From Amphiscolops sp. MND2022 (Eukaryota), in assembly GCA_964187785.1 (NCBI GenBank), contig OZ076409.1, positions 64,172,001 to 64,232,000 on the forward strand: DNA of 60,000 nucleotides, written 5' to 3'. The position numbers and the translations under genes are program-made. This document shows positions 2,308 through 52,033 of this stretch, piece after piece (positions within the stretch are counted from its first letter, which is position 1; the number at the start of each line of letters is the position of its first letter). Under the pieces are notes generated by a model. It saw nothing but the letters and a program-made list of their open reading frames with translations. It was not told where the DNA came from and searched no databases.

Positions 2308-3973
2308 TGTCGCAGCCCCAAAGATGCGATGGGTCCGGAGTGCATCAGTGAAAGATAACCAACGACTTCGACAAACATTCTAAATACTGATATTTTTGTT
2401 TTTTTTTCTTTTCATTTTTATCAAGTCATGTAAATTCTAGGTATATTTTGTATATTTGGATCATTGTGAGATTTTCCTGAGCTGTTATTGAAAGATAATT
2501 CATGTAAGAAGGCGCTAAAATACATGGTTCATTACAAATATTAGCGTAAAACTCTCTATGCTATGAATTCCGTGCTTATTATGCGTCAATATGCCGTAAA
2601 TGTTGTGACGTATAAGCGTCAAAAGTCATTTTTAGAATAGTTTATATGCGTCATCATACGTAAACTTGACTCACGCATATGCGGCATTGTACGTTTTTAA
2701 CTACAAGACAATATACGTTTTCGGATAAACTGCATATGCGGCAATATGCGTTTTTACAATGCAATTATACACTGTTGAGCAGTTCTTATGTTATCGTATG
2801 TACGTCAACATGCGGTTTCCGCAGTGAAAGTATGAACGAATTGTGCAATATGGATTATGGAGTGTATGTGCTATTATGCGTTATTGAATGTTGATGCTTA
2901 CATGTTGTATACGCTATCCTGCAGTACAGGGAATACCGCATATACGTCATTATGCATTTTTAGCTGTACTCTCATCATTTTGAAGTCATGTAGCGATTAA
3001 TTCATCTAATGATACTTGAAACGTATTATACAGCGTCTAACCTTGTTTTCCTAGGATTTTCACGGTCCCTTGATAATATTTAGGGTGTCATTGTAGTGTG
3101 ATTTAAAGGATATAAATAGAATGATGTGATTTTGACGTTATACTGTTTTTAGCTCTTTAAATAATGATACCTGTAAATGTGATTGTCATCCTTTTTGTAT
3201 TTTTTGGAAAACTGAAGGGACCATTCATTCGAATTTTATCTCTCTCATCAAGCAGTTGCTCACTTTTCAACCTGGTCTTTTGAAAGCAGTCTTTTTGACT
3301 AACATTGTTTTATCTCCCGAATTGTCTTTAGATAATTCTTTTGAATAAATTCAAATTCTTCCCCAACAGCCAAAATATCGTTTTCCTTTGAGAAAGATGG
3401 GGAACAAAAGAAGTAGAAGGTCCAGGAGATTGGAGACCCCGTCTCCAGAAAGAGAACTCAATGAAACACAGGTAGAAACATCAACCCAAGGTAATATTAC
3501 TTTGACAAATGCCGAATCTAATATCCATGGAAACCTTGACAATGATGAACTTAGGAACCAATTGATTGAACCTAGCCAATTAAGCAATGAAATACAAGCG
3601 TGGACTGAGAATTTTGAACAAAAGAACAATGATAGAACAACAAAAATGAGAGAAGAAATGGAGAACAAACTAGATGCAATCCTGAAGGAGATAAAATCTA
3701 ATAAAAGTGTATCAACAGTAACAAACCCAAGATCTGAAATGGATGATATACAAAACATACAGCCTCCGGGACCCAAAACTAATAGGTCTATTGGAGTACA
3801 CGCATCTCACATCTATAACTCAGACTCAGAAAACGACGATTATCCTCTACAAGCTTCTAAAATGGGAGACCTGAAACATCCTGCTAAACCATTGTTCAGA
3901 TGCGAATCTGATGTAGATGTAACTATACATTCGGACGAAGAGTCCGACGCAGAGGAAGTGGAGGATTATCACA
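2308..3973 (+). repeat. 5' LTR of E1 (1666 bp)
   Basis: Starts TGTCGCAG, ends TTATCACA; matches 17180-18847 with scattered substitutions and two small indels. Confidence 0.95.
3111..3349 (+). promoter_or_regulatory. Putative LTR TATA box (TATAAATA 3111-3118) and poly(A) signal (AATAAA 3344-3349) bracketing R
   Basis: Same order TATA, AATAAA, gag ATG in the E2 LTR (42626, 42729, 42766). Confidence 0.5.
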
Positions 3974-5094
3974 TGGTGACAGGAGCTAACAAACATCTCC
4001 ATAGACAAAGTTCACAAAACTCCCAACCCTTAAACAATACCATTGGATCCCGCGCAGATCGACAAACATCAACAGCCATAAAAACACCTTCTGACCCAGT
4101 AAACCAAATTGCCCAAGCAATAGAGAAACTGGCAAACAAAAATGCATCACAATCACTGTTTCATCCAAAAAACACATTGACTTTCAATGGAAAAAATGAG
4201 AAAAATGAGAAATTCGAATACTTCGAAGACTTGTTCCACACTACCCTTCGTATGCAGCCAAATCTAACCGAGGAAATGAAAATTAATCACTTCCACGCTC
4301 ACCTTAGGGGTTTAGCCTTGAAAACCTTCAAAAACATACAAAGAACTCCAACCACAACCCTAGAGGACATCTTGAAGGTCTTCCGTAGAAAATATGTAAA
4401 ACCAGAATCCAGTGCTTCGGCAAAGCACCGATTTAACAGACTTTTCTTTGACCCCGAAAACCAAAAACTACCAGACTTCCTCGAAGAGCTCCAAGAAAGT
4501 GCTGAAAAAGCGTTTGGAGACAATGCACATCAGATGATAGAGAATTTACTCTATGCAAAGATGCCCCCTCACCTTAAAAAATCCATCAATCAAGCCTATC
4601 TTGAGAATGGGAGTTACGAACAGATCGTAAAACATCTCGAGAGAGAGATGGAACTAAACGGCTTGGAGGCAGACGAACCGTCGGTCAAGACCCAAATGAC
4701 CGTCACCAAAAAAGAACAAAAGACTGACAAACCGACCAAAAAACAAAATGAAAACCCTAAAACGCAAACCCCAAAAACAGTACCCAACAAGACACTTAAA
4801 AATGACCAATGCCGTTATTGCAAAGAGGCGGGCCACATGATGGCCGACTGCCCCAAATTAGCAAAACGGCGTAAACTTGAAGAAAATCCGGATGCAGAAA
4901 AATGTCAAAACTGCAACACACCCGGGCATGAAGAGGAAAACTGCTACTTTGGTGCCAATATGGAAAATCGTCCATCGAAATGGAACCTTACTGACGCTCA
5001 AAAGAAAGTCATCGAAGCTTATAAACAAGCTCGAAAACCTATTAAACCAAAAATAGAACGACCTCAACAATCCTCTTCCAAGGATTTAAACTAG
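3397..5094 (+). CDS. gag: Gag of E1, starting inside the 5' LTR
   Basis: Open from ATG 3397 through the LTR end and PBS (EDYH|MVTG). Capsid-like FNGKNEKNEKFEYFEDLFHT; knuckles CRYCKEAGHMMADC and CQNCNTPGHEEENC; homologous to E2 Gag. Confidence 0.9.
   Translation: MGNKRSRRSRRLETPSPERELNETQVETSTQGNITLTNAESNIHGNLDNDELRNQLIEPSQLSNEIQAWTENFEQKNNDRTTKMREEMENKLDAILKEIKSNKSVSTVTNPRSEMDDIQNIQPPGPKTNRSIGVHASHIYNSDSENDDYPLQASKMGDLKHPAKPLFRCESDVDVTIHSDEESDAEEVEDYHMVTGANKHLHRQSSQNSQPLNNTIGSRADRQTSTAIKTPSDPVNQIAQAIEKLANKNASQSLFHPKNTLTFNGKNEKNEKFEYFEDLFHTTLRMQPNLTEEMKINHFHAHLRGLALKTFKNIQRTPTTTLEDILKVFRRKYVKPESSASAKHRFNRLFFDPENQKLPDFLEELQESAEKAFGDNAHQMIENLLYAKMPPHLKKSINQAYLENGSYEQIVKHLEREMELNGLEADEPSVKTQMTVTKKEQKTDKPTKKQNENPKTQTPKTVPNKTLKNDQCRYCKEAGHMMADCPKLAKRRKLEENPDAEKCQNCNTPGHEEENCYFGANMENRPSKWNLTDAQKKVIEAYKQARKPIKPKIERPQQSSSKDLN
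3974..3982 (+). promoter_or_regulatory. Primer-binding site of E1 (TGGTGACAG)
   Basis: TGG immediately after the LTR terminal CA; identical 9-mer follows the E2 5' LTR. Resembles tRNA-Leu-type PBS (inference). Confidence 0.8.
5085..5091 (+). promoter_or_regulatory. -1 ribosomal frameshift slippery heptamer T TTA AAC at end of E1 gag
   Basis: X XXY YYZ in gag frame directly before TAG; the -1 frame reads KLETPRL..., matching E2 KLTSPRL. Confidence 0.7.
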
Positions 5095-8000
5095 AAACGC
5101 CACGCCTTAGCAATCGAAACGCCCAAATAACAGAAAAACCACAAGATGACTGGCAGCATCAAGTGGAAACCATAAATATACAACTCAAACAACTCACCAC
5201 AGAACCAGAATACACACCCCAAACACATAATCACTCCGACATCGATGAACCTCCACAGGAATCATACTATGAACTTATGAGAGATGCTCCTGATAAGTAT
5301 TTTTCAGACAATACTCAAACCCCCCCCTTTACCTACAGATAAACCACCAGCAAATGAACACCCGAGTACTTTTTCTTGCAATGAACAAAAACAACCCCTT
5401 CTAGATGAAGATATCCCAAACCACATCCAGTTTGATCAGGAACGCAACCTGTCATATCTACCTATGTCAACCTCGCTAACATTGAAACGAAAACGCCATA
5501 TGTACTATATGCCAATGGACTTCGAAAAACTCACACTTGACGGACTCATCGACACAGGAGCCCTGACTAGTGCAATCTCCGAACAAGACCTTAAAAAAAT
5601 CAAATTAATTGCAAATGAAGCAATAAAAGATACTGGCCCCCCACCAAACTTTCAAATTATGGTGGCTAACGGTCAATTAGAAGTACCCATCGGCACAGTT
5701 TTACTTGAATTCGAAGTGGCTGATTTCATGTTACGAGAAAATTTCATTATCATGAAAAACCTACCAAACCCACTCATTGGTCTCTGCTTTCTCCGCAGAA
5801 ACAATGCAGTTTTTGATGTCGCACAAGGCATCCTAACTTTCCCATACCTCTCAATGCAACTAAAACCAGATACGCAGGTAACAATGCGTCAAGCAACGCC
5901 TTTATTTGCTGAAAATACATACACACTACAACCAGGTGAAACCCTCGCCATAGCAAGCAGAATGCCCCACCTGTTAGACCATGATGCAACAGGAATAGTC
6001 ACACCTTCACCACAATTCGAAAGCCACGACAGCATTTTCATCACATCGTCACTTAGTACGGTTAACAATAATGCTATCGGGTACCAAATAGTCAACTTCT
6101 CAGAACTTCCATATACAATAGTTTGCGACACCCATTTAGCAGACTTCAAAATCCTCACACCAGAACAAATTAAACATATACAACCGGTAGATCCAGCGAT
6201 GTTGTCATTCATGATACAGCATGAAGAAACCACCGAAATCTACATAAATGAATTACTGAAAGTTCCTTCACAAAACCCCGAACAAGAGTCTTATTGGTTC
6301 CCAACACCAGAAGATCCAGGAGACCCTACAACCTATACCCCAATCCAACAACGAATCTACAATGAACTCCTTGAGCTTAAAGAACTCGAACAACTCAACC
6401 CACAAGAAAATGAAAAATCCAGGAAAACTTTCCTTTCGAATTTCGACTGGACCGACACAACGCTCAACCCAGAAGAACAGAAACAAATTGAAGAAATCCT
6501 CATTGAATTCCATGACATTTTTGCCAGACATCGATTCGACATTGGCACCAATCGTGAATTTAAGGTTAAGCTTACACCAAATGATGACCGACCAGCATAC
6601 AGTCAAAGTTTACCAACACCAATCAACCTTAAAGATGACATTACGGTAGAACTAGCACTTCTACACAAATATGGAATCATAACAACCCTACTTTTCTCAA
6701 AATACGCTAGTCCAATTTTTGCACAACGCAAACCGAACGGACGCCTCAGACTACTAGTGGATCTTAGAAAAATCAACAACTTAGTCACCGAAGACTACAT
6801 CAACAATAACCACCCGGTAAGCACATTATCGGATGCAGCACAACATATGGCAGGAAAGAAACTTTTCTGCAAATTAGACTGCTCCCAAGCTTACCACTGC
6901 CTCCAAATGGCAGACTACCAATCTATCCAGATGCTTGCTTTCAACTTCGCAAGCCGAACTTTTGCTTACCGCAGACTCGCTCAAGGGCTTAGCAGATCTC
7001 TTTCAGCCTTCTCAAGCTTCATGAGGGAGTACCTTGACAAGGCGATCAAGGCCGACCAATGGGCGATCAAGGACGAACAATTACACGCAAAGGCGTGGCC
7101 CCTCAAGCTGACAAAGTCAAAGATTTCTTATCGAAATTGAGATTCCCTAAATCCAAAAAAGCACTCCAAAGGTATATAGGATTCCTAAACTATTACCGCA
7201 ATTACATCCCGAGACTCTCTGAACGTCTCTCTCCATTCTTTAAACTCCTTAAAGAAACCTCCAAATTCTATATACCCACTAATTTGGTCGAAGATTTCAC
7301 CAACCTCAACAAACTTCTCATGCCAATTAGCATTGAGACAACCCCTTAAAGATAAACAACTCATAGTAATGTCTGATGCAAGCTTCACAGCAGCAGGATA
7401 TGCTATCATGATAGAAGATGATCCCAACCAAAAACTCCAGTCCAAACGCAAAACCTATGCACCCATAGCATTTGGTTCGAAAACATTCAACCCAACACAA
7501 ACAAAATTATCGATCTATGCGAAAGAATTCCTTTCCATCTACTTTGCTTTTGTCGAATTTGGACACCTTATGTGAGGGAGCACATTCCCCATCATAGTGT
7601 TCACAGACAACAGAGCGGTTACCCGCTTTTTTCAAGCAAAACTTATTCCTCCAGCACTCTGGAATGCATGTGATTATGTCTTGCAATACAATTTTGTCAT
7701 TGCCCACGTTGCTGGTTCAATGAACACTGCGGCGGATTTCCTGTCCAGAACGGAAGTCAAGCCAGTCGAAAAACTCGAAATGAGCATAAGAAACGATATA
7801 CAAACGAAAGCGATAGAAGTCAATATACAATCCTCAGGTATCGTAGAAGAAGAACAAATTTACATCCTCCCTGATGATGAATTTGATGAAAACAAACTTT
7901 GGGAGGAAAAACAAAACGTGAGAAATCAGGCTCAAACTGAAACTCACAATGACCCAGAAAACAATGTTACTGAACTTCAACAATTTTAAAAACCAACATC

Positions 8001-9813
8001 CGGCTTAAACACATGCTCTGAAGGACATTTCCGAGACAATGCCAGGATCAGACTCGAACAAAACAATGACATTGTTCTTAGAAATCTCAGAGCTAAAATC
8101 GAAGGAAACCCTTTCGATGAAAACGACTTGGCATCTGACTACAGATACCAACATTACCTCCAAAACATAACCAGAATTGAAATCAAGCAAGAGGTTCTTA
8201 CTCGCAAATACTACACAGACACTGGAACCACTTCGCATTACCAAATTCTGCTACCAACACAACTCCTAGAAGAACTACTTCAAGCCTTACATGGCCACAA
8301 CTCAAACCATCCAGGTATCACAAAGATGATACAAGAGGTGAGGCAGAAATACTACTACCCGTGTGTTGCAAAATACATTAAAAAATGGGTGACTAATTGT
8401 CAAACCTGCATACAAACCAAAAGGATCAATAAGGACCTCCTCAGGACCGAACTACTTAATTGCCCAGAATGGGACCTCGGCCCCGAAGACATTCTCCGAA
8501 TGGACATCCTACCAAACCTTCCACCCAGTGGTGGATACGACCACATTATAACAGCAATTGATGTTTTCTCGCGATACTTGTTTGCTTACCCAGTGACTCG
8601 TATAACTGCAACATCAGTCGCTCGAGTAATAATGGACATTTTATGCAAACATACATATCTTCCAACAACACTAATCACAGACCTTGGAACACAATTCAAT
8701 GCCCAAGTAACCCACGAAGTAACAGCAGTCCTAGGTGTTGAGATTAAACATGCAACAATGAAACACGCACAAACAATAGGACTCCTGGAAAGACCACATG
8801 CTCCAGTAAAAACCCAACTTAAAGCAGCAACTGGAGAATTCCGACATAACTGGCATAAATTTCTACCGTTAGCAGTTCTAAACCACATTACAACATATCA
8901 CGCATCGCTTGGTTGCGAGCCTTCACGAGTTTTTCACGGCCGCATACCACATAACATACTGGACTACAAGTTAGGATATAATCCTAATCCAAAATACCAG
9001 CCGCAAACTGATGTCGCAGAAGAAATACAACGAAGAATGCGAATATTACTAGACCAGACCAAAAAGAACATAATGCAATCCTAACTTAAATATAAAGCTT
9101 ATTATGATAGGAAGGCCAAGGCCTCACCGCTGGAAACAACGGACTACTGCTACATTCTTAATCCGAAGGCCGACACACAGGCAACGAAAATACCATTCCG
9201 TGAATTCAGATGGCAGGGTCCTTACAAGGTTGAAAAAGTCCTTCCTAACAACAATTACATAGTTAGGAGACTAGGAACAAACAAAACACAACTCTTACAC
9301 CGAATTCGGTTGAGGAAATTTACACCGCTCGCACCTTTAGCTGACATTTTTGTCCGAGAATCCGATTGGCAAAAAGATGATCAAATGCCAGTGGCTCACG
9401 ATGACTTATATGCTCAATCATGGAACACAAATTTTGGACCTAATCCCTTTGAGGACAGCCCTCCGGATCATACACAGAACACTGATGATATTGAATACGT
9501 ATCTGTTGATGCACCTGAAAATAACCACCCTCCCTCCCTCGAATTTCCAAAAAACAGTGGGGGGAGCCCAGTGGAACAGTCCACTGAACGCAAAGAAGAA
9601 AATTATGATGAAATCCAGCAAGAAAGCCAAGATAATGATACAGAAATCTCCCAAAAAACCCCAAAAGAAAAGACACCAGATACACAAACCCAAAAAACTC
9701 CAGAAAATTCACAAAATACCCCATTGCAAGAAGAACCCATAAATACTCGTGGTGAAAAATACAACTTACGCCCTAACCCTAACCCAAACTTCTCAGACTC
9801 TTACAGATATTAA
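5091..9813 (+). pseudogene. pol: Pol of E1 (protease, RT, RNase H, integrase), disrupted
   Basis: LIDTGA; RLLVDLRKIN, KLDCSQAY; MSDAS; HGHNSNHPG...CQTC; MDIL/TDLG/LLER. Lesions: probable +1 in the C-run ~5320, RT YVDD deleted ~7061, frameshift ~7320, stops at 7573, 7987, 9082. Confidence 0.93.
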
Positions 9814-10000
9814 AAAACTACAAACAAATAACACTTTTTCAATACCCCTCTTCAATTCGGGAGTCCTTGTTTTTTTTCTTTTCAACAAGCAAGTACGCTC
9901 CTGACAAATAAATAATGGAACGACTTACTAAATCACAAAGAAATACAAAATATGATACAAATAACTAAAGTTCAATCAAACAATAAGTTGAATTCCAACG

Positions 10001-13000
10001 TTAGTTTTTCTTCGACTTAGAAGACTTTGGCTTGGTGGCTGCAACAGACTCACTAGAATCGTCTTCAGAGCATCGGGCAACAGACACGCTAAGTCGCCCA
10101 AGGGAGGGCCCAGGAGAAGGAGTACTGGCATTACTGGTCGATCTACTGAGACTAGGAGTGGTCCCACCAGACTCTACAACAACTTTCTCAGCTTGTAGGA
10201 CAGATCTCTTGTAGGCAGCTTCAAGTTTGCCCCGTAGAGCAGTTCTTCGCGGGCCACTACCCTTGAGGAAATTCCAAATTGAAAATTTTTTGTCAATCAA
10301 CAAGTCCTGACCTCTGCCCAACAAGCGAAATGCTCGCCCAATTAAACGCTGATCTCTGTACAAACTGGAAACATGCGGAACGCTCAAGTAAGATTGCTGC
10401 AGACAAGTCACGCACCATCGGAACATCTCTTTATCAGATGATAATGTTGGGACTGGCACTTCAAAATGATCAACTTTGCCAACAAATGGAGGCAAGCAGA
10501 GACAAGCGTAACGAAACAAATGAAGCAGGTCCTGTCGACTTTGCATTTCATAATGTGAGGCAAGGTATTGCACCCAATTGTCGTCCTTAACCACAGAATC
10601 AACAATTTGGTAGCCAGAGAACGATATTGGCTGACACACTTGACTTTATCGCTAGGAGAAAGCCATCCTGAATTAACGAAATAGGTTGTGAGCTTTTCCA
10701 CTGCACTAACGTAGTGCCTCTCTGGTCCTTCTACCATAACAGCAAAATCGAATGACGACAATCCTCTAATCAGATTTGAATTGACAAGCTCATGTTTCAG
10801 CAGAACTTTGCAAAAAGATTTGCAAAATGCAATCGATTGATCAATGAATTTGCCCGGCCGGGGCAATTTGCTAGCGATCACTAAATTATGATAGTCAACA
10901 TTCAAAACGAATTCCGAAGCAGTTTTGAAGGGAAGGTCGGTTCGATCCAAATCGAGGCACAAATAATTGTCCCAATCAGTAATCCTTCCCAAAGTTTGAT
11001 CGGGTAGAATATTCTGCAGTTGGCAATACAGAAACACAGCAAACTTGTTGAAAAGTCTAAATCCACTATCCATTTGACCTTCCAATTCGGAGAAAGCTGA
11101 ATTATCTAAAACAAACAACATGGAATCCAGTTAAACATTCCCCTGAAGTCAGATATACGAAAAATACAACAAAAAGAACGTCGAAAAGATATACTATACA
11201 CTATTCCCCATGTTGATTTACGAAGAATATACGTCATTAGAAGGAAATTTTTATCAAATATACGCCATTACACACTTTAAGCTATGCCGAGTATACGTTA
11301 TTATACGGAACTCGCTGCAAAGCTTATACGAACACGTGCATAAATACTATACGTCAAAGTACAGGAAGAAAGATGGTGAGTGTACGTCATTATACGCATC
11401 TTACAAGAAAAGGTATGACGTCAACGATTGGAATGAATTGTAATGTCTATACGCTATCATGCGGAATGAGGCGTGATGACTATACGTCATTATGCGGATG
11501 CAGCAGTGTGAAGGACGAGTCACAATGGTAATGCATCACTATACGGAATGAGGTGTGATGACTATACGTCATCATGCGGATTCAGTAGAACAAAGAACGA
11601 GACATCGATGAGATGCATCATTACACGGAACGAGCTATGACAACTATACGTCACTATGCGGTTTCAGCATGATAGAGAGCAAATTACAATGTCGTTACAC
11701 AAAACGAGTTACAATGACCATACGCCACTATGCGGAATACGAATAACTTCGCGGAGCTACCTTGTAATGCTAAATTAAAAAGGAGATGCACATATATGCA
11801 GATTAATCCGGAATGATTACAATGAAATATGCGGAATTAGACTTAGAAAAGCAAAAATTGCAGTGTTTTGTTCGTACCGGATAAAGCAGGGCAGTAGTAA
11901 CGGTCAAAGCAACAAAACGTGGAAAAAGACGCAACTACTAGGAATTAGGAGAGAAATTGGACGTTGGGAAGTTAACGCACATAATATGCAAAAAGTTAGT
12001 CAGGTTAACAAACTGTCCCGAAAAGACTAAATATATAAAGACAACTCACAATGGTCAATCACACATCGTATGATGAATAGACGGGCCAGGTAGGCTGTGT
12101 CCAGCTTGAAACATTCATCGAGGGTGTTTGGCTAAAAGCAGTGGGGAATGAAATAAATTGAAACTCGGACTTTTGTAATACGTGATAAAGACAACCGACC
12201 TCTCTCATGTGGAAGCGATAAATTGGCAGTCGCGAAACCTGATTGAGATGCTGCAACACATGGTCCCAGTTCGCAGAAAGCTGTTCAATAATGATGGACG
12301 CCTCATGGAGCGAGTAGTCGAGCGTGATGACACACTAAAAACGAAAAATTGGTATTATTTTCAGCATACTAACCAAGACAAATGCTCTCAGGAAAATTCC
12401 AACTTTGTGTAAAGTCGGCAATGAATGGAGCCAGTCTCGATCGAGAGCTGTACGAAGCTTCATCAGGAGGTAGTCGAGTATCGACCGGAAGTCGTGCCTC
12501 TCGATAATTTGGGTTGTGGGCTTTTCAAGAGACTTTTCAAAATCAGCAGGTCCATATGTTTTGACAACTTTCGGTCTTCGGTTCCCGGGCAGTGTCGAAG
12601 CCAAGCAATTGCCTAATTTGTCTCCACCCCCAAGGACACTGATGCAAGAAGGAGGTTGCTCGAGTAGGCTCAGAAACGACGAAATTAAATCCAAAATGCG
12701 TCGGGGAATCAAAACCCCTCGGGGGCCAGTACCGATGCAGACACGGTAGAGTACATTTCCTGTCCAGAAGCACACGAAGAGACGAACGTGAGTTGGGTCA
12801 TGCTGGAAGATGATTGAATAGACCCCAGAAGATGAAATTGCAGTCACGCAATAATTTACCAGCTCTCGAAACATGTACACCAAGATTCCCTGGGAACAAA
12901 ATAAAACTCAGAAACTCAAATGACAATTTGATCATGGGTAGAATTTCCTGGTTGAGAACGCTAACTTAAATTGGAAAGTAGGAGAATTTACTTACAAAAA

Positions 13001-14362
13001 TGCGATGTTCGCTCCAGTTGAGTGATGTAGCTTGTTGAACACTCGGGAGGTGTCGTACCAACTCATCATGGACTCCAGTCAGACTATTTATATGGCCTCC
13101 AAACCGCAACCCGAACTCAAGGATGCAAATTTGCGACAGAACTTCTTCGGAAGGGCTGGTATGACTGGCTAAATCAGGTACTGAGGTTTGGTTTACCAAG
13201 GGCCGGCAAGGATCCAGTTGTGGCGCAATCGGGTAGGTGTCTTTCGCCTTTCTTTTAGCCTCGCTGAGAGGCACCCCTTGCAGTTCTTTCTCTTCCCGAT
13301 CGAAGAGTGGCATTCCAGGAATTTCCATGCGAATCCTGTGTTCCTTTACTAAGTGGCCCTCAGTACGGTAGTGGGACATTAATTCTAAAACCCCTCTGCT
13401 CATAAGGGATAACTCCACTTTGCAGACTCTACACCACCATTTGTAGGGTGTTTTCTCCTTTTCAAGGGGCCCAGTAGCCGAAAACTTTTAGACAGGATGT
13501 TTCCTGAACATATGGGTTTTCAGGGAGTATTTAGGTCTTTGCCTTTTCCCTCGTACAAAAGAAGATCCAGCCGTTGGAGGGTAAGGCACCATAGGCAGCT
13601 CGGAACTGTTTGCTGCATTGGGATTGGGGACAATCGTTGTGTCTCCTTGGTTCCCCACGGGTTCGTTTGTGACCATTAATGAAATCGGTCGGTCCCACTC
13701 GGCTTCCTCACCATGCAGAAGAGCAGGAGGTAATCGGTCTAGTACCCTAGACAAGGCAAGTATCTCATTTCTCGTGATGCTGATTCTCCCTGGATTCACT
13801 TGAGGCATCATCTCTCCTTCATCGATCACAAGGTTTTCAGTCGGGGTATTGGTTAGATTAGCTTGAGCAATTGGTTCCGGTTCAGCAATATGGTGAGGAG
13901 GGGAGGTTATCTCTTCTTCGTGAGAACGATCAAGGATGTAACGACTAAAAGGAGAAGACATCATGTGGGAACTTCCAGCTACCATAATCCCTTCCAGCAG
14001 TTCTTGGGATATTTCCCCAGGAAATAAATCCATTGCAGGAGGAGGAGGAGTGTCACAACTTTGAGTTTGAGTGTTCTCGCTTCGTTCTGCTCCGAGGGGC
14101 TGTTCTACGTGATGCTCAATCCCTTCACAAGTTTGATGGAGCACAACTACCGACGAATCATCGTCTCGCACGACAGAATCTGGCACCCCTTCTTCTGCGG
14201 GGGGATCTTTTGGGACGAGAGTTTTCTCTGCAGTAGAATGGGGCAATACAGACGTGGAAGGACCAGGGTTGTTTGTCTGGATAGCTGGGGAAATGACTTC
14301 CAATGGGGTATATATCTTGGTAGGGGATCTTCCAGGAGACCTCTCTGTTGCTCCAAGTTCGA
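10001..14362 (-). pseudogene. Spliced antisense gene of E1: BED-like zinc finger plus degenerate hAT-transposase-like protein
   Basis: Predicted exons 14362-12996, 12889-12404, 12334-12200, 12131-12050, 11105-10001, joined by in-frame GT-AG introns. Motif WWCRVCKVELSLMSRGVLELMSHYRTEGH. One stop (13488-13490) and one frameshift (~10620). Colinear homolog in E2; the 5' start exon is not located. Confidence 0.8.
11450..11740. repeat. Degenerate ~82-83 bp tandem repeat rich in TATACGTCATTATGCGG, inside the 944-nt intron of the E1 antisense gene
   Basis: ACTATACGTCA recurs at ~11479, ~11561, ~11643; related motifs span ~11190-11840. Confidence 0.65.
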
Positions 14363-16173
14363 CTAAAACAATCAAACCGTCACCGTCTGAGTAAATCGGA
14401 CTGGTTTCAAAACAAATGATCTCTGTTTTAGCATTACCGGAAAAGAAAGCGGAAATACAGCTAATTCGGAAGCCACAAAATCCTAACCGGAAGTTGATAA
14501 GCTTCCGCGAAGAGAAATTTAGCTATTGTAGTACTCTAGCTTCAAAATAGATGTTAGCCTGGCCAGCTTTTCATCTTTTAAAAATTACCGATCGGAAAAA
14601 ATTTGGACAGAAACAAAATTCACTCGAAAGAGTAAAATGAGTCAAACTTACCAGGAGTAGCGGTAGTCGGAGATTTGTAGCCCCAAGAAATGAAGTGTTG
14701 ACGAGACAGCATATCCTTGCGGGATTTCCGCCTTGAATTAGAATCCATCTCTCGAACAAATGAGTGTAAAGGGTGTTGAAAGTACAATAAATAATTCAGA
14801 ATGGTAACAATTAAATACGGGAGTTAAGATGAGTGAGGAACTGAAATTAAACTTAGGAGCCCTGGATTGAGGGGAGTACGAGAAAAGACTAAATAACTGG
14901 AAACTAACTATGATATACGACGAAAAGACTGATTAAAAAAGTTTAAAATTAAGCAGATTGCAGAAACTGGTGAAATAATCAAAGGCGTGGCGTAACAAAA
15001 CGAGGCAAAGAAGCAAATGAAACATGTATTTATTGAATATGCTTGTTCAAACTGAACGCTGATTGGTCAATTAAAATGTCATTCACCACTGCCAGGGTGA
15101 TAGATTGGTTAATTGACAGCCGCAAATCACTTCCTACTTATGCGCAAAGCAGAGATGGTTAGAAGACGTAATATATAAACTTCAATACATACAAGCACGC
15201 GGCAGTATACGATTTAAGCTGTGACGAACATACGTCAGTATACGAACTACAGGACAAGAGTGAGCGTCAACGCCCATACCAAGCAATGATGAGCATACGG
15301 CATTATGCGGAATTACCATAGCCACGTGCAATACAATTTACAGAGCTACATGAGATTATGCGTCAACATGCGGATCAACTGCAGATGATTATACTGTAAT
15401 ATGCGGATTCACAAAGTGGTTACGCGGTAATATGCGGAATTACCATAGCGGAGTATAAAGAGGTATTCTGAACCACACGAACGGCAACAGAACAGACCGA
15501 ACAATTACGTTACGTAATACGATGCACGATAGCCACACACAACGGTGTTAGAGTGGGTATTGGAAAGAAACGAAAAGTGACTGGTTACTCAATGGCAATG
15601 GACAACTCCCCCAAACAATTACTGATTACAATGCGCTTTTAAAGTAAAACTTACAAACAAAAACGTATAAACTGATGTTTATTTCAATATGGTTGCTTGA
15701 ATTTTTAGTTTCGAACATCTTGTTGGGAAAACTAAATTTTAGTCATGTAAGATGATTATATGTTTCCTTTATACTATATTTTCATATAACGGAAGGAGAG
15801 TCATGTAATCCTTTGATGATGATCATAATTTTGTTTGTTAGCTATTAAACTAAATGAAACACCGCCAAAGGGTTGAGGTGAAGAAGACATCCTCCTAAGA
15901 AATGCCTTAAATGGAATTTGTTTACGTTGAGTTACAAGAAATCACGACAATTTCCTTGAATCCAAATCCTAGCGTCAGGGTAGAGACCAAATAAGGAAGC
16001 AGTGAAACCCTGAGAATCATGACACTCAACTTTTTCGCGGGTTTTTGTCGAAGAAAAGGGAGAACTGAAAAAGACATCACCATATGGTCTACAATAACTT
16101 TAAGTTCAGTTGTCTCTAATTTCAAAACTTTGCCTTTTGCTGATCCTTAATTCATAAATACATCTTCAAAATA

Positions 16174-17223
16174 ATGAATCCAACACAATCTAACATCACT
16201 GAAGATCTGGGTTACTCGCGCATTTCCCATGATGTGATCGATATATCAAGCGAGTCCGGAGAAGAATTTGTCGTGGAACCTGGCAATATCGCACAACTAA
16301 ATGAAAGATTTAGAATCAACACTATGGGATCTAATATCTTGGCCGCTTTTGTGGGATCAGCGACAGCCGCTTTGTTCCCTCCTTCGAACTCAGTCGATCG
16401 ACAAGGGACCATTGATATCGCTGGCACCACTATTGAAAGGGAGATCATGGAGTTGATTGAAGAAAGTCCACTTTCGCCTTCTTCTTCCTCCTTGTCTTTC
16501 ATAGACTCAGAATTTGAAGAAGTGGACATGTCGCCGAGAGACTCCACCGGAGCATCAGAAAGACAGTTAAACAATTACGGGCGACCCGTCGCTGCTATTT
16601 TGCCCACGCCTAGGATTCCCAGACAACAATCAAATGAGATGATCAGACCAATACCAACATACCCACTGAACTTCTCACAAGAATCTTCCAACTTTCAGCA
16701 AATCAATACAACGAATGACCAAGGGATTACAAATCCTTCAGCGTTCGAAGCAGGTGGTACACATTCACAAAATGCATTCGTGTTAACAGAACCGCAATAC
16801 CCAGCTGTAGGGGACATCACACCCATGGTAATACATTTGCCCCCTAGATCTATGGTGGATGTTTCTGCCAATTTTATTGGCCCATCTCAACAAGTTACCC
16901 AATTTGGATTCCCATTCAACATCCTATATTGCCCCAACGTTCCTGCGGTAGTAGCCAACGAAGGACAAATCTTCCGGCTGTTTCCCACGGTCATGCCCAA
17001 CGTTTCCGGATACTGTCATTGGTGTGGTCGCACTTTCGATCAAATTGCGTTAGAGACCCTCGGGGACTATCTTGGAGCAACTGCCTATGATGGGGAAACA
17101 GTCAGAGATCGTGGAGTGAGGTCGAGAGCTTTCATCGACGGTTTTGAAGCTGCGTTGTTTATCTTTAAAAACGCAGGACTGTCGCAGCCCCAAAGATGCG
17201 ATGGGTCCGGAGTGCATCAGTAA
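16174..17223 (+). CDS. Extra sense ORF (ORF3) of E1, 349 aa, unknown function; ends inside the 3' LTR
   Basis: Intact ORF. N-terminal VIDISSESGEE; C-terminal CHWCGRTFDQI...AFIDG...SQPQRCDG aligns gap-free with E2 ORF3. Confidence 0.75.
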   Translation: MNPTQSNITEDLGYSRISHDVIDISSESGEEFVVEPGNIAQLNERFRINTMGSNILAAFVGSATAALFPPSNSVDRQGTIDIAGTTIEREIMELIEESPLSPSSSSLSFIDSEFEEVDMSPRDSTGASERQLNNYGRPVAAILPTPRIPRQQSNEMIRPIPTYPLNFSQESSNFQQINTTNDQGITNPSAFEAGGTHSQNAFVLTEPQYPAVGDITPMVIHLPPRSMVDVSANFIGPSQQVTQFGFPFNILYCPNVPAVVANEGQIFRLFPTVMPNVSGYCHWCGRTFDQIALETLGDYLGATAYDGETVRDRGVRSRAFIDGFEAALFIFKNAGLSQPQRCDGSGVHQ

Positions 17224-18847
17224 AAGATAACCAACGACTTCGACAAACATTCTGAATACTGATATTTTTGTTTTTTTTTTCATTTTTATCAAGTCATGTA
17301 AATTCTAGGTATATTTTGTATATTTGGATCATTGTGAGATTTTCCTGAGCTGTTATTGAAAGATAATTCATGTAAGAAGGCGCTAAAATACATGGTTCAT
17401 TACAAATACTAGCGTAAAACTCTCTATGCTATGAATTCCGTGCTTATTATGCGTCAATATGCCGTAAATGTTGTGACGTATAAGCGTCAAAAGTCATTTT
17501 TAGAATATTTTATAAGCGTCATCATACGTAAACTTGACTCACGCATATGCGGCATTGTACGTTTTTAACTACAAGACAATATACGTTTTTGGATAAACTG
17601 CATATGCGGCAATATGCGTTTTTACTTTTACAATGCAATTATACACTGTTGAGCAGTTCTTATGTTATCGTATGTACGTCAACATGCGGTTTTCGCAGTG
17701 AAAGTATGAACGAATTGTGCAATATGGATTATGGAGTGTATGTGCTATTGTGCGTTATTGAATGTTGATGCTTACATGTTGTATACGCTATCCTGCAGTA
17801 CAGGGAATACCGCATATACGTCATTATGCATTTTTAGCTGTACTCTCATCATTTTGAAGTCATGTAGCGTTTAATTCATCTAATGATACTTGAAACGTAT
17901 TATACAGCGTCTAGCCTTGTTTTCCTAGGATTTTCACGGTCCCTTGATAATATTTAGGGTGTCATTGTAGTGTGATTTAAAGGATATAAATAGAATGATG
18001 TGATTTTGACGTTATACTGTTTTTATCTCTTTAAATAATGATACCTGTAAATGTGATTGTCATCCTTTTTGTATTTTTTGGAAAACTGAAGGGTTCATTC
18101 ATTCGAATTTTATCTCTCCCATCAAGCAGTTGCTCACTTTTCAACCTGGTCTTTTGAAAGCAGTCTTTTTGACTAACATTGTTTTATCTCCCGAATTGTC
18201 TTTAGATAATTCATTTGAATAAATTCAAATTCTTCCCCAACAGCCAAAATATCATTTTCCTTTGAGAAAGATGGGGAACAAAAGAAGTAGAAGGTCCAGG
18301 AGATTGGAGACCCCGTCTCCAGAAAGAGAACTCAATGAAACACAGGTAGAAACATCAACCCAAGGTAATATTACTTTGACAAATGCCGAATCTAATACCC
18401 ATGGAAACCTTGACAATGATGAACTTAGGAACCAATTAATTGAACCTAGCCAATTAAGCAATGAAATACAAGCGTGGACTGAGAATTTTGAACAAAAGAA
18501 CAATGATAGAATAACAAAAATGAGAGAAGAAATGGAGAACAAACTAGATGCAATCCTGAAGGAGATAAAATCTAATAAAAGTGTATGAACAGTAACAAAC
18601 CCAAGATCTGAAATGGATGATATACAAAACATACAGCCTTCGGGATCCAAAACTAATAGGTCTATTGGAGTACACGCATCTCACATCTATAACTCAGACT
18701 CAGAAAACGACGATTATCCTCTACAAGCTTCTAAAATGGGAGACCTGAAACATCCTGCTAAACCATTGTTCAGATGCGAATCTGATGTAGATGTAACTAT
18801 ACATTCGGACGAAGAGTCTGACGTCGAAGAGGTGGAGGATTATCACA
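17180..18847 (+). repeat. 3' LTR of E1 (1668 bp), carrying a copy of the Gag N-terminus with a stop at 18586-18588
   Basis: Direct repeat of 2308-3973; TG...CA ends. Confidence 0.95.
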
Positions 18848-36717: not shown

Positions 36718-37031
36718 TGATCTCTTTCACTATATCCCCCCTACAGCAAAAAGGGGGGACATAGTGAAACGCTATTAAATACATGTATTGCACATTCTAA
36801 TCGCGCAGATCTGCTCTTATCTAACAACGCTTCTAATTGGCTGAGTGGGGATTTTGATGATAAGAACCAATAAAAAGTGTCGTTAGTTATGACGACATCA
36901 ATTGATTGACAGAATAGCATGAGAGATTAGCCAATAAGAGATAAATATAAATGAGCCACAAACATTAATATTCTCTAGGGGGGACATAGTGTAACGAGTG
37001 ATATAGGGGGGGGGCATAGTGAAAGAGATCC
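36718..37031 (+). mobile_element. MITE copy 1 (Merlin-like, GG...CC TIRs)
   Basis: TIR GATCTCTTTCACTAT.TCCCCC; degenerate 8-bp flanks AACGCTAA / AGCGCTAT. Confidence 0.8.
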
Positions 37032-41589: not shown

Positions 41590-43351
41590 TGTCGCAGGCT
41601 GCCGCCTGTGACGGCACAAAGTTGACGACAACAACAGTAGGACAGGAGGCAGTGCCAGGAACATTGCCAATCTACTAGAAAACTTGGGACTTGTTGAACT
41701 TTTGCATTATTTTATATGTTTACATCACCTTATAAATTATGTAGTAAATGGCCTTAAAGGGAACTATTCCCTTATTCTGACATTTGAATTGATATACATG
41801 ATAGTAAAAATTCCGGACAGTTTAGGTTTTGTCCAATAGTACCATATTAGTCTGTTAACATGAAAATGTGCTTTTTGTTATGTTATGTTGTTGATGAAAT
41901 CAATATAGAAGCTGGATATAAACAACTGTAAAACGATACGGTAACGAGTTCAAATGGACTCTCGTATACGTGCTACAATGTCGCTTGTGCTTTTATTCTG
42001 GCCAATCAGAGGCTTACAAATCTGTGCAGTACTCTATTTGCCGATTATGGCTCATTGACTAAATGATTAAAACGCTGCATGTGCTATTTAGGCAAACGGC
42101 CGAGTCTGGCCTATCAATCTACTAAGATTAAAAGTTTAGGTAATTGATGCTATCGTCAAGTGCTATTAATAACTCTAATTTGATGGCCTTTATTGCACGA
42201 GAAGGCTTTGATTGATGATTTAGAATGATGAGTATTGTTTTAGTAAGTTATTATTAAATAACCACCCTCAATGTTGTACCAACTATAATCAGAACATGAA
42301 AACATGTATAGTGGCCTTATCAGGCTCGCTCAGCAATCCACCAACTATGTAAATTGGTTGACCCTGACCGAATTTGTTGTGTCACGCGACCCCACATACC
42401 TAAGTCACGTGCATATAAACAACTATGTTATTGATTACCTGTTGATCAGGAAATATTATTCAAGAATGTGAAAATTGTTGACGGTTAAATATTTGTTGCT
42501 TTGATGTAATGAATTTGTTGTTTCACCACATTGGTGACGTTTGTCTTGTGACCCAATAGGGCCACAACCTTGTGACCTTGTCTAGATCAAACATCCAAAG
42601 AATGTGAGTGTCATCCCCTCAGGGGTATAAATACCCGTACTCCTGCAGGTGGATTCATTCAAAACCCTTCTCTCAACCTGATCAAGACTAAATTTGTTCA
42701 AAACAGTTTACTGTTAGTTTTCCGAACAAATAAATAATTCAGTGTTTATACTCGGATTTTCTCTTATGCCTACCACCAGGAAACAGAAGAAAACCAGAAA
42801 GTCCCGCGGACTAGAAATCCTTTCAGACATTGAGAACTTAGACATAATGCTAGGCGGAGACCATTTTAATGGAGCCGAGAGAAAGAGAAGCCTAGATAGT
42901 ACTTCTGCAAGAAGGAGAGAAAGTATTACAAGCAATAATTTGGAAAATGAGGGAGAAAGTCCATACTCAAATCACAGAAATGATGATCTTAGGACTAGTG
43001 CCGATTACGGCCGAAACTCAGCTGATGCAAGCTCTCAAGCTGAAATTAACAAATTGTCGTGTGAGTTAAACTCTAGGATATCCAGAGAGATGGATGAAAT
43101 GATGAATAGCGTTAGCTCCCAAATTCAGAGAGCCATAAACGAGGCTATAAATAACCAAGTATTACCCCAAATACAAAATGTTATAATTGCCGGATCGGGA
43201 CGCGAGGCTAGAAGGGGATGGTAAGCTCCTATGGAGAGACCGGAAATAAGTACCGAAGTGCGCCGTAGTGTAAATGCGAAGGCCCATCTTAGAAGTGAAC
43301 AAGACGATGAACACCACAATGGTGAATTGCCCAATCGAAACGTTCATGACA
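41590..43351 (+). repeat. 5' LTR of E2 (1762 bp)
   Basis: TGTCGCAG...CATGACA; TATAAATA 42626, AATAAA 42729. Confidence 0.96.
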
Positions 43352-43360
43352 TGGTGACAG
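43352..43360 (+). promoter_or_regulatory. Primer-binding site of E2 (TGGTGACAG)
   Basis: Immediately follows the LTR CA; identical to the E1 PBS core. Confidence 0.8.
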
Positions 43361-44468
43361 TAGACAACGAATCTCCCAATCAAGTTCCTGAGTTTCTCAC
43401 AGGACGTATCCCATCTAGAAGTCATCTCGATCAGTCCTGCGAGGACATCAACCTCGACACGACGATCCCAGCACAAGAGAGAATCGCTACGGCTGTTGAA
43501 TCTGATCCCATTACTAGACTGGCCGACGTCTTGTCCACTTTGCAGAATAGACCGACAGCCCAACAACTCACTATACGTCCAGTCAACTCTAATACCATGA
43601 CTTTCGATGGCAAGAGTGAGAAATTTGAGTTGTTCGAGGATCTTTTCCATACCATGATCAAGATGCAGCCAGAAATGACTGAACAGATGAAAATCAACCA
43701 TTTTCATTCACTCTTGAGGAAAAATGCTCTCCAGACGTTTAGAAACATCAATTCGACAAACCGACAAACTCTTGAAGATGTACTAGTCATCTTCAGACGA
43801 AAATACGTCAAACCTGAGTCACAGGCGACTGCCAATCACAAATGGCACCGTCTGGTCTTCGACCCTATTACGATGAAACTGCCTGATTTCCTTGAAGAAT
43901 TGAATCAAGGGGCGGAGAAAGCGTTTGGAGACCATGCGCAGAAAATGATTGACAGCTTACTTTACGCAAAGTTGCCACCAAAATTGAAACGGTCCGTCAA
44001 CATGGCCAGATTAGAAAATGGCTCATACGATGAGATAGTTGCTCACTTGGAGAGAGAATTGGAGCATAACGCTCTCGAGGAGTCAGACGACCTACCAATG
44101 GCAACTATGACTTCCTCATCAACTAAGCCCAAAACTCCTCTGCCCACTGGGCAAATGTCAGACATCACTTGCAATTAGTGCAAGGAAAAGGGCCACATGG
44201 TCAAGGACTGTGAAAAGTTTAAAAAGAAGAAAGAGAAAGACGCCCAACAAGGCAAACAAACTCAGAAGAAGACCTATCCGGAGTGTGGCACGTGCGGCAA
44301 AAAGAACTACCCGGAGGAAAGATTTTGGCAAGGTGCCGGTGCACATCTTAAACACAAACGCACTAGGCCCGAGGACTCAAATGACAATAAGCCTAATTCA
44401 AAGGCCCAGAAACCTCAGACCAAACCGGCATCATCAAGCTCCCAATCCTCATCTTCTAATGATGAGTC

Positions 44469-44475
44469 AAAAAAC
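44469..44475 (+). promoter_or_regulatory. -1 frameshift slippery heptamer A AAA AAC at end of E2 gag
   Basis: Directly before TAA; the -1 frame is open and continuous with the pol ORF at 44574. Confidence 0.75.
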
Positions 44476-47400
44476 TAACTTCGCCACGACTCCAATACAA
44501 CGAACTAATATCCGTCCGCCAATACATCAGGTCGGATCCTCCAACGAAAACCTTTCATCAATACAATCAGCAGTTGATTGGTTATACCTCTGTTGTCTGG
44601 CAGCAACAGATGGACAAAGCTATCATCATTACTTACAATAATACCCATTTATTCCAAAAACCAATTCCTCCTTGGGACCATGACTATACAACCACCTTCA
44701 ATACCCGGTTCAGGCCCATTCCCCTGATCGATGATTACAACCCAACATACATCGATCCAGACTATGGCAGAGATCCCTATTGGGACACCGAGCTTTATAA
44801 CCAAGATTTATTGCAATTTCAATATGTCCTGGACGATATTGACCATTATAACAGAACAGTCCACGAGAACCCTCCAATTACCCATAACAAGAAAACACGA
44901 GCACTAATCGAAAACTGGCAAATGAATGATGGTACAAACCATCCAGTGTTCCCAAACCCCCTGGGGACGGAAAATCCTGAAAACAGTGGTGAACTCATGC
45001 CACAATCATTATTAGACGAAAAACAGTTCCAAAATGTACTCATCACCAGAAACGGTGAACCAGACTGCATACCCCGGTCGACCAACATTAACCTCAAATG
45101 CAAGAAGCGCATGCTTTACTTCCCAATGGACTTTGGGGAATTGACCATAGATGGACTGATTGACAGTGGGGCACTATCTAGTGCGATCCCAGAAATGGAC
45201 CTTCGGAAAATTCGCCTTCTATCTCCACAATCTGTCATCCGGGAAGGTCCGCCTCCTAACATCCAAATCATGGTCGCAAATGTGCAATTGGAGACTCCCA
45301 AGAGTACCATAGAGCTCAAATTTGAAGTTGGTGACATCGAATTTCATGAAATTTTCATAGTAATGGAACACTTGACAGGACCAATCATTGGACTAATGTT
45401 CCTTCAACAAAATCATACAGTTCTGGATATGAGACAAGGAATCTTGAATTTCCCGTTCTTTTCCATGCAGCTGAAAACAGCTGACCACAAATACTCTAAC
45501 GTACTAGAACCAATTCTCAACCCTACCGAAATAACCAATCCGCCAAATGATAGAGTCCTAATTAGGACCAATTCCCTATTGTACCCCGAGAATGCTGTCA
45601 CCGGGATACTACAACCGAGCGACCTTCTCCATGAAGAAGGCGACATCACATTTTGCCCAGCTCTAGTCACTCTGAATGACGGCAATATAATGATACCAGT
45701 GAACAACTTCACAGACCACCCTTACAAACTTAAAAAGGGACTTCACATTGCCAATTTCTCTGTTATGACGCCAGAACAGATGAAATATGTCAAACCGGTA
45801 GACCCGGCATCAACCTGGCACCTTTTGCAAAATGACCAAGAACAGGTAGCCCATTACGTCAGCAGTCTCATCAAGACGAATAGAAATCCTCAAAATTCTG
45901 AAAATTACTGGTTCCCAACTCCACAAAAACCCTGGAAACCCTGAGGAACACACACCTATACAGAAACGAACCCTCCCAGAGTTACAGGCCTTACAGGACC
46001 TGGAGACAATCGACCTCACCAAAGATAACGAATCTCGTGCAAAATTTCTAGAAAACTTCGACTGGAAAGATTCCACTCTTACTCTTGAAGAAAAGGAGAA
46101 AATTGAAGAATTACTAGTGGAATTTCATGATATATTTGCACGACACCGATTTGATATAGGCATGAACGAGGAATTCAAGGTGAAATTGACACCTAAGGAT
46201 GACTCCCCAGCTTATAGCCAGAGCCTCCCAGCCCCTATCAACCTAAAGGAGGACATCTTAGTCGAATTGGCCTTGTTACACTAATGTGGCATAATCACCA
46301 CCCTACCATTTTCGAAATATGCGAGTCCAATATTTGCACAAAAGAAACCGAATGGGAAACTCCGACTCTTGGTTGACTTGAGAAAAATCAACAACCTCAT
46401 CTCGGATGATTATATCAATAATAATCACCCCGTTAGTACACTAGTCGATGCCGCCCAACACTTGGCAGGCAAAAAACAGTTCTGTAAATTAGACTGTTCG
46501 CAGGCATACCACTGCCTGCCGATGGCTGACCAGCGTTTGATCGAAATGTTGGCTTTCAATTTTGCCAGTCGCACATTTGCATACAGACGTTTGGCACAAG
46601 GCCTTAGCCGGGCACTGTTAGCATTCTCGAGTTTCATGAGGGAATACCTCGATAAAGTCATTAAAGGGGATCAGTGTGCCCAGTATGTGGACGATATCGG
46701 CATTGCGGCCAATGATGCTGACCACCTCATAGCAAACCTGAGAGCTACGTTCAAATGCATTCCGGAAGCAGGCTTTAAGTTAACAATGCACAAATGTCAC
46801 TTCGGTGCAAAAGAAATTGATTTTCTCGGACGGACTATTACCCCACAAGGCGTCAAACCCCAGAAACTTTCTGGAAAAAACCAAATTCCCGAAGTCAAAA
46901 AAGGCTTCACAGCGCTATTTGGGTTTCTTGAACTACTACAGAAATTATGTCCCAAGACTTTCAGAACGCATTGCTCCATTCTACAAGATGCTGAAAAGTG
47001 ACAAAAACGTCTTGGTATCGAAAGAATTGGTTCAACAATTCGAGGCAATTACCAAAGCACTTGACAAATGTTGCGATTTGGCCCTACAACAGCCCAGTCC
47101 AAACAAGCAAATTGCGCTAATGACTGACGCAAGCTTTGGCGCAGCTGGATACGCAGTCTTAATTGGAGATGATCCGAATCAAAAATTCACGTCGCACAGA
47201 AAGTCCCATGCACCGGTGGCATACGGATCAAAAACCTTCACCCCAGCACAGATCAAGATGTCAATATATGCCAAGGAATATCTTGCAATTTCTTTTGCAT
47301 TCAAAGAATTCGGCCATTTCTTCTAGGGTGCGCCCAAACCGGTCATTATCCTAACTGACAACAAAGCTGTAACACGATTTTTCCAAACAAAAATAATACC

Positions 47401-50400: not shown

Positions 50401-50837
50401 AGAATGCGGCAGAAATGATTCAAAGTGACGTAGACGAGAAAGAAGCGGATTACATAATCACGCGAGAAGAATTAAACAACGACAATGCGGCGCACAGCCA
50501 GAACGACCGCTTAAGTGATGACGTCACTAAAAGAAATGAAGCTACTGCAGTGACAGGAAATGAAGAATCTGATTGGCCGAATCCGGCCGTTTCCCCAAAA
50601 AACCAAGAAAAATCTTTGCCGAATACGGCAGATAGACCGGAAAACGATGAAATTTTTCCAGAAAGAAACTCGATGAATGAAGACGATGTACAAAATTCTC
50701 CTAAAAGGGGGGATGATATTATCGTGCCCGAAATATCGCAAGATGATACTAGAAATGAAAGTCTGAGCCCTAGAGGAGGGAAATATAATCTCAGGCCTAA
50801 CCCTAACCCAAACTACTCAGAAGACTTCAGATACTAG
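44475..50837 (+). pseudogene. pol: Pol of E2, disrupted; integrase C-terminal part deleted near 48610 and 3' tail duplicated
   Basis: LIDSGA, KLDCSQAY, QYVDD, MTDAS, HGTAHRHPG...CEEC; several stops and frameshifts; tail KYNLRPNPNPNYSEDFRY ends at 50837. Confidence 0.92.
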
Positions 50838-52033
50838 AAAAGACTGAATTCAGTTCAGGAAACAAGCCCTGAATTTTCTCCTTTTCTCTTATCTGTTATC
50901 ATGTTTTTTATCTCAGTCCCATGCGAGAAAGTATTTTGAATAAATAATGGGACGTATGAAAGATCCCTTGCAAAGAAAATAATACGGGATCAAGAAATCA
51001 AAGGAAAGAAATGCATATAAATAATGGCAACAAAACAGAAAATGAACAAAGTTTACAGTTTGCAAGTACATAAATACATATGTACAATTGGTTTTTAGAA
51101 CCATTAGCAGGGGATTCTTCGGCGACAGATGAGGCTCTACTACGGAAACGATTTCGTTCCATCCGTCTACGTTTACTATCACTGGGCAGCTTGACAGCAG
51201 GAGCATCACGCACAGAAGGAGTATCAGCAAAACTAGGACTCCTAAAATGGAATTCTGACCCAGAGAGAACAGAGCGATAGGAGGAGACAAGAGTCTTGTA
51301 AATCGCGGAACGTCCGAAAATGTCTACATAGGCCCAGGGATCGTAATCGGCAGTGAAAACTGATTGCCCAATCGACGAGGACCACTGGAAGAACTTTTCA
51401 AGTCGGGACTCAGTGCGGCAGGCAATCAAAGAATAAGGCACTGATGACATATAACTCTGGCAGGGCAAGATCACGTCTGTTAAACGAGACTGAAATCCTT
51501 TTGTGTCTAATTTCCCCAAAGAAACCGGGGGATATTCGGGACTAATAGAAGTAACACATAGACAGCTCAATTTGAATAAGTAGCAAAGATGCTCGTGGGT
51601 CTGGAGGAATTCTAAATCCTTGAAGAAATTGATGAGGTCAGGAGAGTCACTGGCTGAGCTGAATTCAGAAGAGTGGTTAGTTCGGAGGTAGTCCAGCAAG
51701 GCAACATACTCGTCCCGGCAAACTGATTTGTTGGACGCCGAAACCCAAGAGCGCAACTGAAATGTACAATACAGGCGATCGAAATGCCGTAAAGCAACTT
51801 CCACGGGCCTCTTGAACAGGATATACGGATCGAACGCAGCCAGTCCTTTGACGAGATCGGAACCGAGCTCGGTGTGCTGGAGGACCCCCGACAACAAACT
51901 TGATGAAGTCCTTAGCACTTGCTACAAAATCTGACCTAGCCGTTTCAGCGGTCTTGTTGATGACTGCTTTGCTTGACTTCTTATTAAAATGAAGTCCGGC
52001 TGCTTTCAGGTTGCTCGCAGTGGTCACCTTACT
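48682..52033. repeat. Tandem duplication of 1676 bp inside E2 (48682-50357 and 50358-52033)
   Basis: Junction CACCTTACT|GGCAACGAACC at 50357/50358; both copies hold the pol tail and the 3' part of the antisense gene. Confidence 0.93.

Follow-up and report, generated by a model that had tools for sequence, protein, structure and literature searches.

Antisense open reading frames (ORFs) located behind pol have been described in the plant long terminal repeat (LTR) retrotransposons Retand, Grande and RIRE2 and in fungal Boty, and the available text of two accounts states that their origin is unknown (PMC7264820, PMC11963269) and, in review, that those of the plant elements lack similarity to other known transposable elements (TEs) (PMC11963269, PMC7264820). 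As far as that text extends, Retand/Tat elements with TRP28 (Transposase_28) and maize Grande with gene23 have a long region between pol and the 3' LTR, an antisense ORF that almost every active copy has, tandem repeats particular to each family, a proposed DNA-binding regulatory role and, in Grande, a separate antisense promoter (PMC11963269, PMC7264820); brtn of a fungal Boty-like Gypsy element, as cited there, likewise lies antisense in the interval from pol to the 3' LTR, in a fungus rather than a plant (PMC7264820). The origin and job of such accessory genes remain an open question. We analyzed a 60,000-nucleotide stretch (the window; OZ076409.1, positions 64,172,001 to 64,232,000, here G000:C1:64172001-64232000) of the 1.067-Gb, 1,929-contig genome assembly of Amphiscolops sp. 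MND2022, in which two Ty3/Gypsy retrotransposons, E1 and E2, each carry behind pol a spliced antisense gene with a concrete predicted origin, a hAT transposase. Compared with Retand/Tat and Grande, the differences are this predicted whole transposase body, the absence of a Transposase_28 match, a sense ORF (ORF3) and a gag gene that starts inside the LTR.

Gypsy elements that are large or have three ORFs and that carry captured genes, as here, also include bdelloid Vesta/Juno/TelKA (PMC5408684), planarian Burro (PMC6431247) and Oikopleura Tor (PMC4402516); in the portions of these accounts available, what has been added is env, DEDDy, GDSL or in-frame domains, and no transposase-derived antisense gene appears. 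The pol sequences studied here may resemble those of acoel elements. The accessible parts of two acoel genome papers report LTR-rich genomes and do not describe element structure. Antisense ORFs behind pol and self-regulators in plant DNA transposons are known, and what is apparently new, within the open literature, is a whole, predicted disarmed hAT transposase in a retrotransposon; neither this nor the four-gene layout was found there (Repbase, Dfam, GyDB, subscription papers and supplements lay outside the scope of the search). The initial annotation did not recognize the combination either, and it missed both the likely hAT origin of the antisense protein and the repeated non-coding motifs reported below.

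The antisense protein is 800-1,200 amino acids long, and those of E1 and E2 are 24-38% identical in their alignable parts. The gene comprises the following blocks:

14652..14748, minus strand: E1 likely first coding exon, with an ATG, basic, its phase-1 donor kept in relatives.
12996..14362, minus strand: E1 exon 2, Ser/Pro/acidic low-complexity sequence, then a CxxC...G...H-x5-H (BED-like) finger and a helical DNA-binding-like region; one stop.
12404..12889, minus strand: E1 exon 3, RNase H-like core in which the catalytic aspartates are not conserved.
12200..12334, minus strand: E1 short exon 4, corresponding to the helix that follows the RNase H-like core in the intron-poor family; its 3' end is approximate.
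11106..12200, minus strand: E1 long intron, containing six CGYAT-N5-CGYAT (11293-11734) and a tandem repeat of 82 bp (11462-11669); the donor is placed approximately.
10001..11105, minus strand: E1 last exon, covering the helical insertion plus the C-terminal portion of the hAT-like fold; frameshifted once, acceptor approximate.
50998..55470, minus strand: E2 antisense gene, exon blocks as in E1; 5' end approximate.

Matches to the exon profiles end at identical columns across all lineages. In 27/27 spliced copies, intron 2 begins 21 nt past one fixed Trp codon at a GT donor in phase 0 (GTRAGT in most) and ends at pyrimidine-rich AG acceptors, with splice sites retained between lineages whose pol is ~47% identical. 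One intron-poor lineage reads through the splice points uninterrupted, with 820-950 open codons in dozens of copies. These patterns indicate that the antisense gene is real and spliced, as first proposed from the window. In L092, L148, L155, L221-L230 and P0063, which are members of the intron-poor lineage, three of the introns were lost or never present. In intron 1 of E1 (~14363-14651) and of relatives, blocks of non-coding sequence (GCTGGCCAGGCT or TTGATCAGG, with several CTTCCGG) persist from lineage to lineage; they are possibly the promoter of ORF3.

Whole-frame ratios of nonsynonymous to synonymous substitution (dN/dS) were obtained for pairs from the intron-poor lineage, setting aside one young pair (dS 0.04, uninformative) and three saturated ones. 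The four pairs gave 0.053/0.60, 0.100/2.44, 0.096/2.05 and 0.035/0.49 (ratio 0.05-0.09), the slowest-changing parts being the finger and the adjacent helices, and by these rates the gene is under purifying selection. Nested insertions are common among TEs and many hAT elements are present in this genome, as would suit a hAT transposon that landed in a Gypsy element and was carried as a passenger or fossil. The low dN/dS, the long open frames, the splice sites kept at ~47% pol identity, and the constant position and orientation in 54/57 elements (see below) run counter to this account; selection and ubiquity together refute it, and we give it next to no credence.

Predicted models of the protein have an RNase H-like core with a large helical insertion and a Hermes-like overall fold, Foldseek comparisons gave middling E-values, and ESM Atlas neighbours and features of the protein point to hAT. 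The CxxC...H-x5-H residues of an N-terminal BED-type CCHH finger are conserved; Pfam zf-BED gave no match to this finger, and neither Pfam nor hhalign matched the protein to hAT profiles (Dimer_Tnp_hAT and others). The DDE triad and CxxH are not conserved, as judged from alignment column counts in an inferred register, which speaks against an active hAT transposase; a Retand/TRP28-type antisense ORF was also rejected, there being no Transposase_28 Pfam match. The protein is predicted to have a hAT transposase fold without a conserved catalytic triad. Hermes, other hAT transposases and domesticated ZBED/FAM200/GTF2IRD2-type proteins are alike in predicted fold, domain order and BED-like finger, but here the DDE and CxxH positions are unconserved, sequence similarity is undetected, and the gene is encoded by a retrotransposon rather than by a DNA transposon or the host. 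An unrelated RNase H-fold protein that resembles hAT by chance would account for the missing sequence signal and the middling E-values, and we consider it very improbable.

To gauge how widespread the layout is, we used a PBS (primer-binding site) pattern, CATGGTGACAGNAG, which has 7,803 genome matches compared with 5 for the reversed control. The sample consisted of the first 70 PBS sites on contig 1, unselected (10.5 Mb of one contig). Integrase (IN) lay downstream in 57, and antisense exons followed it in 54 of these, in the same position and orientation and with at least two exon types in 52; of the remaining three, two belong to the env-like sister elements and one is a deletion. Antisense exons were still present at 4 of the 13 sites without integrase. 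All ten loci picked by the antisense gene (10/10) lie inside complete LTR elements with 97-99.9% LTR identity, and a loose pol-end motif adjoins 63/69 further loci. Sampled LTR pairs are mostly 97-100% identical. Scaling from this part of one contig gives an estimate of ~6,000 elements, each ~16 kb long, which would make up close to one tenth of the assembly. The gene also occurs in lineages whose protease (PR)-reverse transcriptase (RT) region is just 46-47% identical to that of E1, and integrase and zinc-finger trees recover the same lineages, the finger tree being a quick version that raised several warnings of long branches. The metagenome contig L231 (46% GC; pol 67-70% DNA identity) combines pol, antisense exons, a spacer and a sense ORF with an LTR that contains gag and with the same PBS. 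The initial annotation had held the four-gene architecture to be inherited, and the counts, the concordant trees and the recurrence in L231 bear this out; a majority of copies lacking the accessory region is not what the sampled sites show. At L231:8173-9965 a PBS and a further gag come after an LTR, representing tandem elements with a common LTR. A last-exon profile matched 1,478 protein clusters, and the ten examined came from ENA, MGnify, JGI, NCBI and Logan.

Non-coding DNA of these elements contains paired motifs that differ between lineages. CGYAT-N5-CGYAT occurs 12 times in the window compared with 0.19 expected, all in E1, on a single strand and never in coding DNA, and is spread across LTRs, spacer and long intron:

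2646..2750, minus strand: two CGYAT-N5-CGYAT in the E1 5' LTR, with a third, looser one at ~2956.
14749..16173, no strand: E1 non-coding spacer, which separates ORF3 from the divergent antisense gene and holds three CGYAT-N5-CGYAT (15230-15372).

Ten E1-lineage relatives keep 4-12 copies. For seven of the eight distant ones tested, no E1 non-coding region aligned over as much as a quarter of its length. Different pairs mark other lineages: GATG-N7-GATG (24-46 copies), GACG/ACGT-N7-GACG/ACGT (shared with L231), GGAC-N5-GTCC and GACT-N9-AGTC; env-like sister elements have poly-T or poly-A only. Lineage-specific accumulation is clear for E1's lineage and the GATG lineage. We lean towards the idea that the apparently disarmed transposase is a sequence-specific binder of these pairs, through which it would raise transcription within its own lineage, probably as activator or anti-silencer. 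Several points limit it: the motifs were discovered post hoc, after looking; a hold-out test gave p<0.01 in 7/29 elements, strongly in lineages A and B; and in E2's lineage 0/6 passed, with only a weak GCC-N6-GGC. That E2's lineage keeps its antisense gene despite so weak a motif would be expected if the motifs were host transcription-factor sites and the hAT-like protein acted elsewhere, for example in binding cDNA or chromatin for nuclear entry or integration-site choice. Several motifs do resemble ordinary bZIP-like ACGT/TGAC cores, and selection covers the entire transposase body, beyond the finger. However, the motifs vary in step with the finger lineages and occupy three separate non-coding compartments, including the antisense gene's own intron, and a half-site spacing of about one helical turn would fit a multimeric binder, so that we find host-factor sites doubtful.

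Nothing in the evidence from fold, selection or motifs tells activation from repression, and the protein might instead repress or limit its own lineage through the same motifs, as a self-restraint factor like retroviral antisense regulators; antisense regulatory genes of human and simian T-lymphotropic viruses (HTLV/STLV) are cited as parallels of plant antisense ORFs in the available text of a review (PMC11963269). The lineage is very successful, judging from its PBS sites and near-identical LTR pairs, and a pure repressor would for that reason be expected to be lost; we regard repression as unlikely.

On the favoured reading, an ancestral Gypsy element would have captured a hAT transposase gene in reverse orientation. 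Because of that orientation, its introns and poly(A) signals would go unseen in genomic RNA, and the gene, with its own promoter in the spacer, would be copied intact. The finger and overall fold would have been retained, as fold prediction suggests, with decay of the DDE site, as the alignment suggests; the protein would bind motifs with half-sites 9-12 bp apart in the LTR, spacer and its own intron, keeping copies of its lineage transcribed. Protein and motifs would then have diverged together into lineages, with pol changing little or being exchanged. Integrase dS is 0.07-0.23 in pairs with saturated antisense-gene dS (e.g., v39/v54, u14/u27, u5/u22), and this suggests that pol has been exchanged between elements holding old, distinct accessory modules. 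A broader reading, which we place slightly short of an even chance, is that a retrotransposon lineage domesticated a DNA transposase as a private transcription or anti-silencing factor, protein and motifs co-diversifying and aiding spread to thousands of copies, about a tenth of the genome, with a sister lineage holding an env-like gene in the ORF3 slot.

The nearest functional parallels are VANC of VANDAL (PMC5735166) and TnpA of Spm (10.64898/2026.08.24.746577), TE accessory proteins that outpace the core enzyme in divergence, have variable exon structure, and are associated with family-specific short motifs in non-coding DNA, tandem repeats and their own intron; TnpA is itself derived from a transposase (10.64898/2026.08.24.746577). 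Those are plant DNA transposons regulating themselves, whereas here a retrotransposon would use a protein of the other TE class, and binding and anti-silencing are demonstrated for VANC and TnpA but only proposed here. The words retrotransposon, LTR and gypsy are absent from the TnpA preprint (10.64898/2026.08.24.746577). If the protein does bind the motifs, this would be gene capture between TE classes for self-regulation, would extend VANC/TnpA-like systems beyond plant DNA transposons, and would make the lineages a natural collection of DNA-binding specificities built on a single scaffold. With thousands of naturally occurring variants, and with candidate motifs that vary between lineages, binding could be tested directly.

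ORF3 is the fourth gene of the layout:

16174..17223, plus strand: E1 ORF3, acidic/Ser-rich N-terminus and a C-terminal CxxCG[KR][ST]...R-A-F...G module that ends within the 3' LTR.
56429..57199, plus strand: E2 ORF3, with one stop and a C-terminal Cys module as in E1.

The CxxCG[KR][ST] module was found in ~35/70 sampled regions, in E1- and E2-like lineages, and distant lineages have a different sense ORF in this slot. Matched ORF3 pairs gave dN/dS of 0.04/0.31 and 0.15/1.96, and ORF3 is probably a second small regulatory protein. The initial annotation saw no env-like protein. This holds for ORF3 of E1 and E2, which has no transmembrane (TM) segment (maximum hydropathy 1.34) and no Pfam match, and an env-bearing Gypsy type (errantivirus/Tor/TelKA) was rejected for lack of a TM anchor. 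It does not hold for the sister elements u11 (L051/L052) and u25 (L079/L080), which share the PBS, have short LTRs (370-410 bp) with no internal Gag, and carry, besides a short antisense ORF of a different kind, a sense ORF that is env-like in its signal-like start, RxKR site, hydrophobic stretch and TM segment and has no Pfam match. In the integrase tree they fall outside the main group on a long branch.

E1 and E2 are Ty3/Gypsy LTR retrotransposons by their TG...CA LTRs, 5-bp target-site duplication (TSD), tRNA PBS, and gag followed by PR-RT-RNase H-IN:

2308..3973, plus strand: E1 5' LTR (self-BLAST), its final ~580 nt coding for the Gag N-terminus.
3974..3985, plus strand: E1 PBS, TGGTGACAGGAG, complementing the 3' end of tRNA-Leu(CAG) of this genome.
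3397..5094, plus strand: E1 gag, beginning in the LTR and running across the PBS; zinc knuckle, Ty3 capsid-like, terminal slippery TTTAAAC.
5090..9813, plus strand: E1 pol, PR, RT, RNase H and IN; frameshift, ~49-codon RT deletion near 7065, three stops.
17180..18847, plus strand: E1 3' LTR (self-BLAST), 97.6% identical to the 5' LTR.
41590..43351, plus strand: E2 5' LTR, TSD CCTAC; gag ATG at ~42766 inside the LTR.
43352..43363, plus strand: E2 PBS, TGGTGACAGTAG.
44466..50837, plus strand: E2 pol, broken; ~168-codon integrase deletion at 48609/48610.
48682..52038, plus strand: E2 tandem duplication of 1.68 kb, 97.5%, spanning the pol end and the last antisense exon.
57111..58871, plus strand: E2 3' LTR (self-BLAST), 97.2% identical to the 5' LTR.

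Both elements lie where they had been placed, with LTRs of the form TGTCGCAG...CA and TGGTGACAG immediately 3' of each 5' LTR, and the overall layout given for them stands. The window self-BLAST gave no alignment between E1 and E2 LTRs, only gag and pol pieces at 64-72%, in agreement with the claim of unalignable LTR interiors. Pfam matched zinc knuckle, protease, RT, RNase H and integrase, arranged as in Gypsy elements; the accessory frames of the window had no match. Three points call for correction. The TSD of E2 is perfect and that of E1 is imperfect, GCAAC/GCTGC (2303-2307 vs 18848-18852), differing at 2/5 positions, beyond expectation from LTR age; E1 may be a recombinant of two copies. 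The length surplus of E2 reflects its tandem duplication, combined with the integrase deletion. Both copies are defective, E1 by the loss of RT codons and several stops, E2 by the loss of integrase codons. The tRNA-Leu 3'-end pattern matching the PBS occurs 857 times genome-wide, and ARAGORN calls tRNA-Leu(CAG) in 1/4 loci taken; tRNA-Leu-like 3' ends of this primer type form a long tandem array at G000:C8:35.59-35.64 Mb and beyond.

The proposed gag start in the LTR and -1 frameshift into pol were also upheld. In E1, 192 gag codons are open within the LTR and the frame continues past the LTR end and PBS, and most relatives also start gag there, usually with 100-215 codons. The gag terminus is a slippery heptamer (TTTAAAC, AAAAAAC or GGGTTTT) with pol in the -1 frame, and intact pol of 1,500-1,930 open codons was found in seven relatives (u6, u10, u12, u13, u14, u17, u28). 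Some relatives (P0256, P0264, P0295) have a Pfam dUTPase match between PR and RT.

Other repeats in the window are a 2.3-kb near-perfect palindrome (96.6%) at 19576-21900, directly past a 200-N gap and either a foldback-like element or an assembly artefact; a satellite at 24280-28475 with an 84-bp unit x 50, 74% alike; a ~310-bp unit in nested inverted and direct repeats at 36719-37957, resembling a miniature inverted-repeat transposable element; and an inverted copy pair of another repeat at 38730-39457 and 59423-59864, also present in L121.
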